DNA of 64,000 nt from Desulfobaccales bacterium (GTDB lineage Bacteria > Desulfobacterota > Desulfobaccia > Desulfobaccales > 0-14-0-80-60-11), in contig JBKQKO010000001.1 of NCBI GenBank assembly GCA_052147455.1, forward strand, positions 9,379-73,378, given 5' to 3'. Below are positions 8,160 through 59,963 of this stretch, one piece after another (the first letter of the stretch is position 1; each line of letters opens with the position of its first letter). The notes below the pieces were generated by a model. It worked only from the letters and a program-made list of their open reading frames with translations. It searched no databases and was not told the origin of the DNA. Made by a program: the position numbers and the translations under genes.

Positions 8160-9926
8160 ATGAAGGTGGTGCTGGCCCGCACCGCCGGCTTCTGCATCGG
8201 CGTCAAGCGGGCTCTGGAGCTGGTCCTGGAGGCCATCAACGAAACCCAGACCCAGATCTATACCTATGGTCCGCTGATCCACAATCCCCAGGTGCTGGAT
8301 CTGTTGCGGGAGCGGGGGATCACGGTGCTCAAACCCGGTGAAGCGGTGCCGGAGGGACTGGTGGTGATCCGGGCCCACGGCATCCCCCCGCGGGAGCGGC
8401 AGCAGTTGGAGGGCGGCGCCTCCCGCATCATCGACGCCACCTGTCCCCGGGTGGCCAAGGTCCAGGCCATCATCCGGCGCTGGGCCGCCAAGGGCCACGC
8501 CACCATCATCGTCGGCGACGCCGACCACCCGGAGGTGGAGGGTCTGCTGGGCTATACCGGGGGCCGGGGCCACGTGGTGGCCAGCACCCGGGAGGTGGCC
8601 GCCTTGCCGGAGTTGGGCGCCCCCATCGTGGTAGCCCAGACCACCCAGAGCGAAGCCCTGTTCGAGAAGCGGGTGGGGGAAATCAAGACCCGCTTCCCCA
8701 GGGCCCACATCTTCAATACCATCTGCGACGCCACCGCCTTCCGCCAGGCGGAGGTGCAGGAACTGGCCAGCCACGCCGAGGCCCTGGTGGTGGTGGGGGG
8801 GCGCAACAGCGGCAATACCCAGCGCCTGGTGGAGATCTCCCGGGCCACCGGCATCCCCACTTACCACGTGGAGACCGAGCAGGAACTGGACCTGGAGGAG
8901 ATGAGCCGCTACCACACGGTGGGGGTGACCGCCGGGGCCTCCACCCCCCACTGGCTTATCGGCAACGTAGTCAGCACCTTGAAACACGCCTGGGCCTTCC
9001 GTCCCGGTTCCTGGACCAACTACCTCTACCGGGCCTGGCGCTTCTTCCTCAAGTCCAACCTCTATGTGGCCACCGGCGCCGGCTCCCTCAGCTACGTGTC
9101 CTCGCTGCTGCAGCAGGTGGAACCCGAGTTCACCTATTTCTTCGTGGCCTTTTTCTATGTCTACGCCATGCACCTGCTGCACCACTTTACCGACAAGGCC
9201 TCCAAGCTCAACGACCCGGTGCAGACCATGTTTTACGGGCGCCACCGGATGTTTCTCCTGAGCACCGGGGTCATCTCCGCCGGCCTGGCCCTGGCCCTGG
9301 GCGCTTATCTGGGCTGGCTGCCCTTTGTCTTCATCGTCATCATGAGCGGCATCGGCCTGCTTTACAATTTCAAGATCATCCCGGACTCCTTGGCCCGGGT
9401 CACCCTGATCACCACCCTCAAGGCGATTCCCGGCTCCAGGGCGGTGTTCACCGCGGTGGCCTGGGGGGTCCTGGCGGCCCTGATTCCGGTGGTCTGCTCC
9501 GACACCAAACCCGCGGCCTCCGGGGCCACCGCCATCGCCTTCTTGTTCGTGGCGGGGATGATCTTCATCCGTTCCGGCCTCTTTGAGATCATGGCCATGG
9601 AAGGCGACCGGGTGGTGGGCAAAGAGACCCTGGCCATCGCCCTGGGCCGGGAGCGCACCCTGAACCTGTTGTCCGGCTGCTGCCTGGCCTTTGTGGCCAT
9701 GCTGCTGCTGGCCGCCGCGGCCGGGGTCATCCCCTCCCTGGGCTACCTCCTGAGTCTTACGGGCTTCTACGCCCTGGGCTACCTCACCCTCTACCGCCGC
9801 GGCCTCATGGAAGCCGGCCTGATGCTGGAGTCCCTGGTGGAGGGCAACATGATCCTGGCCGGGATTTTGGCCTTTATCTGGGATCCCTATAATACGGTTG
9901 CCGGTTTTTGGTTTTCGATTTTTTAG
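8160..9926 (+). CDS. ispH: IspH (HMBPP reductase) fused to a UbiA-like polytopic membrane domain
   Basis: Residues 1-285 match IspH by eye (AGFCIGVKRA, HNPQV, IRAHG, DATCPRV, HPEVEG, TICDAT, GGRNSGNTQRL, GVTAGASTP). There is no stop at the junction. Residues ~300-588 form 8-9 hydrophobic helices with a UbiA-type motif, EGDRVVGKETLAIALG. Confidence 0.8.
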   Translation: MKVVLARTAGFCIGVKRALELVLEAINETQTQIYTYGPLIHNPQVLDLLRERGITVLKPGEAVPEGLVVIRAHGIPPRERQQLEGGASRIIDATCPRVAKVQAIIRRWAAKGHATIIVGDADHPEVEGLLGYTGGRGHVVASTREVAALPELGAPIVVAQTTQSEALFEKRVGEIKTRFPRAHIFNTICDATAFRQAEVQELASHAEALVVVGGRNSGNTQRLVEISRATGIPTYHVETEQELDLEEMSRYHTVGVTAGASTPHWLIGNVVSTLKHAWAFRPGSWTNYLYRAWRFFLKSNLYVATGAGSLSYVSSLLQQVEPEFTYFFVAFFYVYAMHLLHHFTDKASKLNDPVQTMFYGRHRMFLLSTGVISAGLALALGAYLGWLPFVFIVIMSGIGLLYNFKIIPDSLARVTLITTLKAIPGSRAVFTAVAWGVLAALIPVVCSDTKPAASGATAIAFLFVAGMIFIRSGLFEIMAMEGDRVVGKETLAIALGRERTLNLLSGCCLAFVAMLLLAAAAGVIPSLGYLLSLTGFYALGYLTLYRRGLMEAGLMLESLVEGNMILAGILAFIWDPYNTVAGFWFSIF

Positions 9927-29102: not shown

Positions 29103-29122
29103 TCCGCTAAACATTGCCTTCA

Positions 29123-29154
29123 GGCTCCACCCGGGGACGGGTGGGGCCTTTTTT
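29123..29154 (+). terminator. Rho-independent terminator
   Basis: GGCTCCACCCG-GGGA-CGGGTGGGGCC is followed by TTTTTT. Confidence 0.8.
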
Positions 29155-29186: not shown

Positions 29187-29744
29187 TCAGCGCCCCCCGG
29201 AATCTGCAGGGCTCTCCAGTAATTCCCTCAGGGTCTTTTCGTAAACTGCATAGGCGGGGCGGCCAAACAGGACGAAGCGGACCACCTTGATCTCCGCATG
29301 TTGGTCCAGATAAGCCAGCGCCACTTGCAAGGCGATACGGGCGGCCGCGGCCAGGGGATAGCCGTAGGCGCCGGTAGAAATGGAAGGGAAGGCCACGGAG
29401 GTGATGCCTTGGCCGGAGGCCAACTTCAAGCTCTCCCGGTAGCAGGAAGCCAGTAATTCGGCCTGCTGCGCCCCTCCGTCCTTATAGACCGGACCCACCG
29501 TATGGATGACGTAGCGGGCCTTGAGGTTGCCGCCGCGGGTGAGGCGGGCCTCACCCGTGGGGCAGCCCCCCAAGCGGCGGCACTCTTCCAGGATACCGGG
29601 ACCGCCGGCCCGATGAATGGCGCCGTCCACCCCACCGCCGCCCAACAGCGAGGGATTGGCGGCGTTGACGATGGCCTCGGTATCTTGCCGGGTGATATCT
29701 CCCTCCAGCAATTCCAGGCGCGACTCGCCGATCTTCACTTCCAT
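29187..29744 (-). CDS. Macro-domain protein (ADP-ribose/O-acetyl-ADP-ribose hydrolase type)
   Basis: GDITRQDTEAIVNAANPSLLGGGGVDGAIHRAGGP is present, with SVAFPSISTGAYGYP. The start abuts the upstream stop (TAAATG). Confidence 0.88.
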   Translation of the reverse strand: MEVKIGESRLELLEGDITRQDTEAIVNAANPSLLGGGGVDGAIHRAGGPGILEECRRLGGCPTGEARLTRGGNLKARYVIHTVGPVYKDGGAQQAELLASCYRESLKLASGQGITSVAFPSISTGAYGYPLAAAARIALQVALAYLDQHAEIKVVRFVLFGRPAYAVYEKTLRELLESPADSGGR

Positions 29745-30320
29745 TTATTTGCTAATCAAGCGGTAATGGTCCGCCTGTTTGGTCCAGCTGCTGGTGGGAA
29801 ATTTAGCGGTCAGCTCGTCGTAGGCTGCCCGCAAAATTTTGGGGTCTGGGCTCATCTTGTATTTGGCCACTCCCAGGAAAAACAGGGCCTCCGCGGCCGT
29901 CTCCATATCGGGGTGACCGGAGATGACCTCCTCGAAGAGGGCGCGGGCCTCGGCAAACTGGCCAGTATCCAGGGCCCACCTGCCTTTGGCCGTCATCAAG
30001 GTGGGAATCAGGTCTTCCGGGGCGAAAAACCCCACGCCGCGGTAGTGCTCCCGCCCCTCCGCGTCCAGCACCAGCACGGTGGGAGTCCAACTCACCGAGA
30101 ACCTCTGCATCATGGCGGTGTTGGAGGTTTCAATCTTTACCGGGACAAAGTTCAAGGAAATAAACTTGGCCACCTTCTCGTTGGGGTACGTAACCGCACC
30201 CATCTGTTGGCAGCCCAGTCACTTGGGTTTAAAAAAATCCAGGAAAATAGGCTTATTGATCTGGCGCGCGGTTTCCTGGCCCTTGGCCAAATCGTCCAGC
30301 CAGCAGATCTCCAACGCCAT
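29745..30320 (-). CDS. Thioredoxin-fold protein, candidate selenoprotein (in-frame TGA at 30219-30221 read as Sec; U-L-G-C motif)
   Basis: AAGGAG lies 6 nt upstream of ATG 30320. There are 33 sense codons (MALEICWLDDLAKGQETARQINKPIFLDFFKPK), then TGA, then LGCQQM. The frame continues into the track ORF 29745-30203. The pattern W..D...A...A....KPIFLDF....U(C)xxC is a thioredoxin-like active-site context. Confidence 0.6.
30184..30221 (-). promoter_or_regulatory. UGA codon plus candidate bacterial SECIS hairpin
   Basis: The hairpin lies 17 nt after the UGA. It is GGGUGC-GGUUAC-GUACCC, a 6-bp stem with an apical loop containing GGU, at 30184-30201 on the minus strand. Confidence 0.45.
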
Positions 30321-30617
30321 CTGTATCTCCTTTTACCAAAGACGCCCCGCCCCTTGGGGGCGTCCGGGCCTCCTCCCGGGGGCGCACCGGGATTCCAGCG
30401 CCATGGCTAAAAATGATTTGGGCCCAATTCGGCCCACAGGTGATACTGTTTGAGGGAAACATAATCATCACCGGGCAAAAAGCAAGGAGCCGTTAGCCCA
30501 CGGGTAATAAGCCGCTCCGAAAAACCGGGCGCCCCTGCGCCAATAAAATGGCAGCCGGTTGCGGCGGCCTTGCCTCATCCTTATCTTAAATATGCAAAAT
30601 CGAGGGGAGGTTCCATT

Positions 30618-59148: not shown

Positions 59149-59808
59149 TTACTTCTTCAGACTCCACTTGCGGCGCAGCATGCCTAGCCCCATCAGCCCG
59201 GAGCCCAGGAGGAGCAGGCTCGGAGGCAACGGCACTGCGTTCAGGGCAATCTTATCGAAGCCGACCTGCGGGCCGCTGTCCGACAGCCGGATTTCCAAAG
59301 TATCTCCCAGAAATGCCGATCCAGTGCTGTTGTACGACACTATGAAGGGTGCAAAAGTTCCTTGGGGTCCAGTGCCGGAGGTCGAGGCCAGAACGTTGCC
59401 CCCAGCCAGCAATTGCATGGTGTACGTTGCGAAATAGCCAATATCATTTCCCACCACACCGGTCAAGGCGTACGTGGTGTTGTTTAAGAGCGGAAAGCCG
59501 GTGAGGACCTGGGAGAATGTATTGCCTGCGGACTGGCCTCCGACACCGAGCCAGCCGATCTGGCTACCCTGAGGCGCCGGTACTGTCCATAAGCCATAAT
59601 TGTTCAAATCGATATTCCAGACCCCTCCTCCACCCGTCCCCAATGAAGTCCAACCGGGAGGATCCACATAGGTGGCATCCCGACCTGTGGTAATTGAGGG
59701 ATCTTCAAAACCAGCATTGATGATAGGAATAGAAGTTGCAAGGGCCCCCGAAGTTCCCAGCGCTAAGGCCATGAGCATCAGCGCTATCACCAGCCATAAC
59801 TTTTTCAT
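59149..59808 (-). CDS. PEP-CTERM sorting-domain secreted protein
   Basis: A signal peptide is present (MKKLWLVIALMLMALALGTSGALA). The C-terminus VPLPPSLLLLGSGLMGLGMLRRKWSLKK has the VPxP motif, a TM helix and a basic tail. Confidence 0.85.
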   Translation of the reverse strand: MKKLWLVIALMLMALALGTSGALATSIPIINAGFEDPSITTGRDATYVDPPGWTSLGTGGGGVWNIDLNNYGLWTVPAPQGSQIGWLGVGGQSAGNTFSQVLTGFPLLNNTTYALTGVVGNDIGYFATYTMQLLAGGNVLASTSGTGPQGTFAPFIVSYNSTGSAFLGDTLEIRLSDSGPQVGFDKIALNAVPLPPSLLLLGSGLMGLGMLRRKWSLKK

Positions 59809-59963
59809 CGGCTTTCCCCTCTAATATCGGTCCGAAATTTCCGGTTATCTATGCATAAAACCCGCGCTGCCTATTCCAGGCAACCCGGCCGTCTCTCCAT
59901 CCTCATAGACCCGTGGCTTTCCATCTCCATCGTGCGATGAGTTTGGCTCTTCTGGTACATCTC

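Follow-up and report, generated by a model that had tools for sequence, protein, structure and literature searches.

We analysed a 64,000-nucleotide stretch of DNA from a Desulfobaccales bacterium (GenBank assembly GCA_052147455.1, contig JBKQKO010000001.1, positions 9,379 to 73,378 of the forward strand; hereafter the window), focusing on its minus-strand segment 29745..30320. This segment very probably encodes, with a probability that we estimate at about 0.92, a single cytoplasmic selenoprotein of 191 residues belonging to the 'Thiol:disulfide interchange protein' family, in which an in-frame TGA codon (30219..30221) specifies selenocysteine (Sec). The TGA and the coding sequence upstream of it are conserved across genomes, Cys replaces Sec at this position in homologues, and a covarying hairpin follows the TGA. 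Based on its fold and motif, the protein is most likely a selenol/thiol oxidoreductase with a U-x-G-C motif, whose TPR tail would recruit a partner.

An in-frame TGA within a conserved gene

The original prediction, made from the sequence alone, had proposed that the open reading frame (ORF) called by gene finders at 29745..30203 is joined in frame, across a TGA, to a proper translation start. All the elements that it described are placed exactly on the minus strand. A Shine-Dalgarno site, AAGGAG (30327..30332), precedes the ATG at 30320-30318 with a 6-nt spacer, and 33 sense codons (MALEICWLDDLAKGQETARQINKPIFLDFFKPK) separate this ATG from the TGA. The latter is directly followed by LGCQQM, the Met of which is the ATG at 30203-30201 where the called ORF begins, and the hairpin GGGUGC-GGUUAC-GUACCC (30184..30201) begins 17 nt after the UGA. 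The full coding sequence, read from the sequence and its translation, thus comprises 191 codons including Sec34 and ends with the TAA at 29747-29745, within a TAAATG junction with the next gene. There is no Shine-Dalgarno site ahead of the ATG at 30203. In the translated homologous loci, the start is an aligned Met with purine-rich codons before it. The GC content at third codon positions (GC3) is coding-like on both sides of the TGA, at 0.73 upstream and 0.82 downstream. A scan of the window for in-frame TGA codons with coding signal on both sides yielded five sites, of which only this one was read as splitting a single gene; the one other site examined, at 20184-20182, is the ordinary stop of one gene, with the next gene continuing in frame.

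Using tblastn on one genome per species, we collected 80 loci that match the protein over residues 1-191. Two features by which bacterial selenoprotein genes are recognized were found among them. UGA-containing orthologues with both flanks conserved are the rule, as TGA occurs at the aligned codon in 77 of the 80 species-level genomes (77 of the 79 intact loci), and the approximately 33 N-terminal codons are conserved in the translated loci. Homologues with Cys aligned to the UGA account for the two intact loci with TGC, one in a Desulfobaccales metagenome-assembled genome (MAG; L046, CLGC) and the other in a Geomonas genome (L070, CIGC). The consensus of the 77 TGA loci around the site is KPILLDFFNPQ-TGA-[IL]GC[QK]QMGAVTYP. 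The redox motif is UIGC in 45 cases and ULGC in 30, with UTGC, UGGC, CLGC and CIGC found once each, and the resolving Cys of the UxxC motif, Cys37 in the window protein (TGC, 30210..30212; codon +3), is present in all 77 Sec forms. The Met six codons downstream of the UGA (Met40 in the window protein, equivalent to Met39 in G. metallireducens) is shared by 95% of the loci and recurs in many, though not all, Cys forms.

The loci come from Desulfobaccales, Syntrophobacterales, Syntrophales, Syntrophorhabdaceae, Geobacteraceae (including the cultured Geobacter hydrogenophilus) and Desulfomonilaceae. One of them, L004, lies on the closed chromosome OY969108.1 and encodes an orthologue with 89% identity. 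Two of the Sec-form members were found on short contigs assigned to a Bacteroidota bin (L052) and a Dehalococcoidia bin (L079). Their occurrence outside Thermodesulfobacteriota and Desulfuromonadota could reflect mis-binning or horizontal transfer. Three single records are aberrant. Two loci of long-read MAGs carry a frameshift just at the Sec codon (L012:4001-4574 and L066:4001-4571), and one ENA protein (P0115) has Arg, presumably encoded by CGA, at the Sec site, together with spurious extra sequence at its N-terminus and a C-terminus that is out of frame. They are probably assembly errors and could also represent genuine gene decay.

An exhaustive profile search against 1.84 billion cluster representatives collected 118 proteins at E <= 1e-30, some of them entries of ~150 residues starting at the post-UGA Met and others full-length entries of ~186-203 residues. 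The full-length homologues (~190 residues) have Cys at the Sec-aligned site, in the motifs CVGC, CIGC, CPGC, CGGC, CSGC, CAGC and others, and the pairing of Cys with Sec that characterizes selenoprotein families is therefore observed many times over. CxGC or CxxC is found here in most of the 34 distant full-length homologues that we retrieved; in some, the first Cys has been lost. Searches of this kind had been suggested at the outset to establish whether homologues align Cys or Sec with residue 34, and both were found, TGA in the 77 genomes and Cys in two genomes as well as in the distant homologues.

Truncated database records

Gene callers were expected to truncate the gene, and they do: the ORF at 29745..30203 is identical to MGO9619805.1 and MGP8105130.1, 'MAG: hypothetical protein [Desulfobaccales bacterium]', of 152 residues. 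At E <= 1e-3, the first protein search yielded 159 homologues, and of the 120 among them that were listed, almost all have exactly 152 residues; with a second search, nearly all of the ~240 matches listed show the same truncation. Such 152-residue records, annotated as hypothetical or TPR proteins, also come from cultured G. hydrogenophilus, G. metallireducens RCH3, G. grbiciae and a Trichlorobacter species. Homologues uniformly beginning at the Met encoded at 30203 had been named as an outcome that would speak against a selenoprotein, and database proteins superficially fit it. As the upstream DNA is conserved, these starts are annotation artefacts. Standard gene callers halt at the UGA and resume at the Met six codons further on, generating a truncated 'hypothetical protein' of 152 residues.

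The practical point is thus one of annotation, since homologues in the databases are systematically truncated and labelled 'hypothetical' or 'TPR repeat protein'. The absence of a curated NCBIfam model may explain the many truncated NCBI records, and our alignment of 80 genomes, with its SECIS element (see below), frozen synonymous sites and Sec/Cys distribution, could seed such a model.

A conserved hairpin after the UGA

The hairpin that follows the UGA had been proposed to be a bacterial selenocysteine insertion sequence (SECIS) element, which its consensus structure, covariation and frozen synonymous sites bear out. A consensus model of bacterial SECIS elements and the program bSECISearch reportedly originate from Zhang and Gladyshev in 2005, with the element of Escherichia coli fdhF as the prototype. 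The hairpin of the window is unrelated in sequence to that of fdhF. It shares with the bacterial model a stem-loop located within the coding sequence just after the UGA and an apical loop in which G precedes U or G, and its distance from the UGA and its folding energy are such as the model allows.

The segment of 57 nt that begins with the UGA could be aligned without gaps in 74 distinct Sec-form sequences. The RNAalifold consensus consists of six pairs, between columns 21-26 and 33-38 (30201-30196 with 30189-30184), and 442 of the 444 cells are paired; the hairpin is present in all 74 sequences. A seventh pair, G30195-C30190, is possible. In the loop, 30195-30190, G30194 is invariant and precedes U30193: all 74 sequences have G in column 28, and at least 90% have U in column 29, the others having G. 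In the stem, pair 23-36 is GC in 50 sequences, AU in 18 and GU in 5, pair 22-37 is GC in 68, AU in 4 and GU in 2, and pair 25-34 is GU in 63 and AU in 11. Counting the optional seventh pair, two-sided changes affect 22 cells, a value reached in none of 500 shuffles, and in a control with the 3' arm slid, pairing amounts to only 26-70%.

The constraints on the RNA are also apparent from the codons. At pair 23-36, the G-to-A change alters the protein (Gly to Asp), and the other arm compensates for it by a synonymous TAC-to-TAT change. In a subgroup of Geobacteraceae and Desulfuromonadaceae, the peptide is MNTGPYS in place of MGAVTYP, and the hairpin is still kept, as GAAUAC-GGGUCC-GUAUUC. Synonymous sites in the stem are frozen, the third position of Gly codon +7 being T in 58/58 cases and that of Thr codon +10 being G in 70/70, compared with an entropy of 1.2-1.8 bits at other neighbouring four-fold sites.

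Bacterial SECIS elements have been described as having 3-9 nt in the apical loop and 4-16 bp in the upper stem, a UGA-to-loop distance of 16-37 nt, a minimum free energy (MFE) of at most -7.5 kcal/mol, and at least one G in loop positions 1-2, usually followed by G or U (PMC13188914, Fig. 2 legend). The hairpin in the window has a loop of 4 nt (GUUA) with a 7-bp stem, or of 6 nt (GGUUAC) with a 6-bp stem, a UGA-to-loop distance of 23-24 nt (alignment columns 4-26/27), the invariant G of column 28 and an MFE of -12.4 kcal/mol, and 72 of the 77 Sec-form loci are at or below -7.5 kcal/mol. The 66 nt after the UGA of the window fold at -26.1 kcal/mol (z = -3.3), and 1/200 shuffles folds as well. 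In this single-sequence fold, a longer lower stem pairs UGACUGGGCUGCC with GGUGGCCAAGUU; it is not backed by the consensus of 74 sequences and was discarded as clade-specific or fortuitous.

Among the Cys forms, L046 retains the canonical hairpin (-14.8 kcal/mol) and is apparently a recent Sec-to-Cys conversion. The hairpin is weak or lost in L070 (-1.3 kcal/mol), L085 (-3.7) and L086 (-0.3), and the only hairpin of L084 is in another register (-7.6 kcal/mol).

Membership in a known selenoprotein family

The original prediction had allowed that the family might not be new, and it is not. The 'Thiol:disulfide interchange protein' selenoprotein family is said to have been first reported by Kryukov and Gladyshev in 2004, in EMBO Rep 5:538. 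Recent reviews list it with PF13098, a UxxC motif and the representative WP_011366075.1, and credit it to those authors. Zhang et al. 2006 (Genome Biol 7:R94; PMC1794560) give members from G. metallireducens, G. uraniumreducens and Syntrophus aciditrophicus in their supplementary file 4.

We ran the second homologue search with the G. hydrogenophilus orthologue as the seed and found G. metallireducens RCH3 EHP89026.1 (152 residues) in the same 90% cluster. The RCH3 contig shows the usual split into a 32-residue call and a 152-residue call. Translation across the TGA gives MAQIEWITSLAEGLSMAGRENRLVLLDFFNPG-TGA-IGCKQMDAVAYPD..., which is identical, residue for residue, to the 'Thiol:disulfide interchange protein' entry of that supplementary file. 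In BLASTP, the window protein shares 41% identity with this member over 188 of 191 residues (E 6e-57), and it has an in-frame UGA as the first position of UxxC (U-L-G-C, residues 34-37) in a PF13098-type domain. By sequence, we therefore assign it to this two-decade-old family as a new, more distant member from Desulfobaccales.

The two proteins have in common the ~190-residue architecture of a thioredoxin domain followed by a TPR-like region, the position of Sec in U-x-G-C, the position of the SECIS element and PF13098. They differ in their motifs, U-L-G-C in the window and U-I-G-C in Geobacter, and in the genes downstream, a macro-domain gene in the window compared with rpiB-gnd-zwf-pgl in G. 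metallireducens. Desulfobaccales is not among the orders of the three members of 2006, and the family is far wider in Thermodesulfobacteriota and Desulfuromonadota than those three members. The scientific gain is small, selenoprotein lists having included the family since 2004.

Domains, fold and proposed mechanism

With Sec replaced by Cys, the 191-residue protein matches the Pfam models Thioredoxin_2, Thioredoxin_7 and Thioredox_DsbH over residues 7-106, with PF13098 as the top model (39.4 bits, cut-off 27). These matches span the TGA, and therefore the called ORF begins inside the domain, as had been proposed. The thioredoxin-fold domain, of the DsbD-gamma/DsbH/Thioredoxin_7 subtype, corresponds to 30003..30302. 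It is followed by a TPR-like helical domain (residues ~111-185; 29766..29990), to which weak Pfam TPR matches (residues 111-152) and a match to TIGR02795 YbgF below the cut-off point.

A PDB sequence search points to the C-terminal thioredoxin domain of DsbD (DsbD-gamma, E ~4e-6), 3f9u and PDI A4 as the nearest solved structures. In these alignments, Sec34 coincides with the first Cys of CxxC in PDI, 3f9u and DsbD-gamma, which agrees with the position assigned to the TGA in the original prediction and with the Cys-bearing homologues. Residues 113-184 resemble the TPR domain of CpoB/YbgF (E 7e-4).

AlphaFold models of a natural Cys-form homologue (P0063) and of the 152-residue ORF of the window were considered separately. 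The P0063 model, with a predicted local distance difference test (pLDDT) score of 87.6, has a thioredoxin fold in which residue 34 directly precedes helix 35-41, and its Foldseek matches comprise 3f9u, DsbD-gamma, domains of the DsbH type and thioredoxins, with E. coli YbbN/CnoX lower in the list. The C-terminal half of the 152-residue model (pLDDT 92.8) is all-helical, and its best matches are the TPR domains of YbgF and CpoB (E ~1e-2, root-mean-square deviation 2.0 A over 86 columns).

DsbD-gamma and DsbH/Thioredoxin_7 domains (PDB 2fwe, 1vrs, 1uc7, 2ju5, 3f9u and 7tkv) are thus the nearest solved relatives by sequence and by fold (TM scores of 0.6-0.7), and their redox motif occupies the same place in the structure. 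In DsbD, a membrane protein of three domains, the gamma domain is periplasmic and uses Cys, whereas the window protein has Sec, a TPR-like tail and no membrane segments. No member of the family has a signal-peptide-like N-terminus, and the protein is therefore predicted to be cytoplasmic, unlike DsbD-gamma. It is not a DsbD proper, as its NF001419 score is 33.8 bits for a cut-off of 330, with only the C-terminal thioredoxin domain matching (profile 463-569) and a non-hydrophobic N-terminus, nor is it a canonical thioredoxin (26.2 against 96.8 bits for TIGR01068, and 20.9 against 23.5 for PF00085).

No NCBIfam model passed its cut-off for the window protein. The best matches, besides DsbD, are with TsoB (NF045694, 41 against 805 bits), VPGUxxT (NF041382/3, 34 against 350) and Trx7/PDZ (NF041199, 30 against 300) proteins. 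These also have a thioredoxin fold with Sec in or near CxxC, but their motifs and architectures differ from those of the window protein. In the cytoplasmic 'chaperedoxin' CnoX/YbbN (PDB 3qou and 3qdn), too, a TPR domain comes after the thioredoxin domain. These two structures occupy Foldseek ranks 36 and 46, the best TPR matches being instead those with YbgF/CpoB, and we found no sequence-family match of the window protein with CnoX/YbbN. CnoX is also longer (~285 residues, compared with ~190), and has a longer TPR region and no Sec. A functional analogy would be only an idea.

The mechanism that we propose follows the established bacterial Sec pathway. At UGA 30221-30219, the hairpin at 30201-30184, located 17 nt further on and with G-U in its apical loop, would recruit SelB.GTP.Sec-tRNA(Sec), so that Sec is inserted and translation does not terminate. 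Sec34, at the N-terminal end of helix alpha-1 of the DsbD-gamma/DsbH-type fold, would form with Cys37 the selenol/thiol redox pair of U-L-G-C. This pair presumably cycles via a selenenylsulfide, reducing or exchanging disulfides, and the C-terminal YbgF-like TPR domain probably binds a partner or substrate.

Alternative readings of the UGA

Some of our results weigh against a selenoprotein. ARAGORN detected no tRNA in the window, hence no tRNA-Sec, and no tRNA-Sec was found in the 80 flanking loci. selA, selB and selD are absent from the 20 larger ORFs of the window that were scanned with Pfam, which yielded only housekeeping genes, among them those for IspH, SerRS, AroC, TsaD, a LeuA-like protein, aspartokinase, LpxB, RibBA, DnaB, AroA and an MFS transporter. 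The support from covariation is confined to two stem pairs and, as the aligned sequences are related, the shuffle control exaggerates its significance. Rfam scans of 29900-30500, at the gathering threshold and at E <= 10, identified no SECIS family and gave chance-level matches only; nothing in Rfam reached threshold for the element, and this null result is uninformative for a short bacterial SECIS element. A 2026 review grades the family as 'predicted with high confidence' and not as verified, and we know of no 75Se labelling or mass spectrometry for any of its members. Nevertheless, it is very unlikely that the genome lacks the Sec machinery, because the TGA and the SECIS element are conserved in 77 genomes and the use of Sec by Geobacter and Syntrophus hosts is documented. 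G. metallireducens, G. uraniumreducens and Syntrophus aciditrophicus each have a Sec-form member of this family, and SelD and FdhA are also listed among their selenoproteins.

We consider it extremely improbable that the UGA is a genuine stop, separating a 33-codon upstream ORF from an independent 152-residue TPR-containing protein that starts at ATG 30203. The database annotation of nearly all listed homologues, the conservation of that Met and the absence of visible Sec machinery in the window would fit such an arrangement. However, the 33 upstream codons are conserved as protein across orders and supply strand beta-1 and the active-site turn of the thioredoxin fold, which the 152-residue product would lack, and two genomes as well as many distant homologues read through the site with Cys. 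As the Met recurs in many Cys forms, its conservation seems to reflect the protein and not the use of this codon as a start, and its ATG has no Shine-Dalgarno site. Selenium-dependent re-initiation at the same Met was considered as well and rejected, since many Cys forms keep it.

Decoding of the UGA as Trp or Cys, by near-cognate read-through or by a tRNA(Sec) mischarged with Cys, with the hairpin as a mere stimulator, is also very improbable. Downstream hairpins can stimulate read-through in general, and the Sec machinery was found neither in the window nor in the flanking loci. Yet this hairpin fits the specific bacterial SECIS pattern, with an invariant G in the loop, U or G directly after it, and a spacing of 23-24 nt, the family occurs in the Sec-using lineages listed above, and a catalytic site occupied by Cys or Sec is typical of Cys-to-Sec exchange. 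Finally, the frameshifts in L012 and L066 and the Arg in P0115 might suggest a pseudogene, or a TGA arising from a sequencing or assembly error. With the same TGA in 77 independent genomes, intact frames and coding-like GC3 on both sides, such an explanation is scarcely credible and effectively refuted by cross-genome conservation.

Genetic environment

The selenoprotein gene abuts a co-oriented gene (29187..29744, minus strand) for a macro-domain protein of the O-acetyl-ADP-ribose deacetylase type (Pfam Macro, E 9e-47; NF001664, 225 bits against a cut-off of 200). On the 3' side of the macro gene, a GC-rich 12-bp hairpin with U/A tracts (29122..29149), a terminator-like site found by pattern scan with a consensus match only, probably marks the end of a two-gene transcription unit.

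The abutment of the two genes, pointed out in the original prediction as an unexplained pairing, is real in the window and peculiar to that genome. Of the 50 close-clade loci, 43 have a macro gene in the same orientation 3' of the selenoprotein gene, and of the 30 distant loci, none does. The close-clade gene order is Usp, selenoprotein, macro, a 140-residue ORF, a 139-residue ORF and FolD. The gap between the selenoprotein and macro genes in 42 relatives has a median of 131 nt (range 2-505), compared with 0 nt in the window. As the two closest relatives, whose proteins are 91-94% identical, have spacers of ~400 nt (L001:4576-4970 and L002:4576-5017), the TAAATG junction is a local peculiarity, which suggests that the spacer was lost from the window by a recent deletion or inserted in the relatives.

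In G. metallireducens, the genes directly 3' of the selenoprotein gene code for rpiB, 6-phosphogluconate dehydrogenase, glucose-6-phosphate dehydrogenase and 6-phosphogluconolactonase (L081:4509-8267). This NADPH-generating cluster of the oxidative pentose-phosphate pathway hints at a possible link to NADPH-dependent redox reactions. The neighbours of three Cys-form loci are unrelated, and comparison of the 80 loci, G. metallireducens and the three Cys-form loci revealed no partner gene conserved across the family. As Geobacter and the Cys-form loci have other neighbours, we read the macro pairing as lineage synteny. It is improbable that the Sec-containing thioredoxin/TPR protein and the macro-domain ADP-ribose hydrolase form a functional pair in Desulfobaccales and close relatives, clade-limited synteny being the sole argument for it and the gap between the genes varying from 0 to 505 nt. 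If they did, the pair might act, for instance, in a redox-controlled or redox-repairing step by which protein ADP-ribosylation is reversed or O-acetyl-ADP-ribose is turned over, the TPR domain serving to dock the partner.

Upstream of the selenoprotein gene, the divergent intergenic region of 250 nt (30321-30569, minus strand) is rich in GC hairpins. It harbours four terminator-like sites on the minus strand, and the scanned region has a total of five such sites for 2.3 expected. Matches to Rfam in this region are at chance level only (sbcD, E 0.9).

Other features of the window

A c-di-GMP-I riboswitch aptamer (RF01051; 46.5 bits, gathering threshold 35, E 6e-6) was identified at 59876-59957 on the minus strand, upstream of the ORF at 59149-59808 on the same strand. 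The 588-residue ORF at 8160-9926 on the plus strand contains a full LytB/IspH domain (E 5e-89) and, in its C-terminal half, a weak, sub-threshold match to UbiA prenyltransferases (32.7 against 34.2 bits); it may be an unusual LytB/IspH-UbiA fusion. Lastly, the ORFs between 37645 and 40353 have GC3 values of 0.26-0.53, compared with 0.75-0.86 in the surrounding genes, and this region may be a horizontally acquired island.

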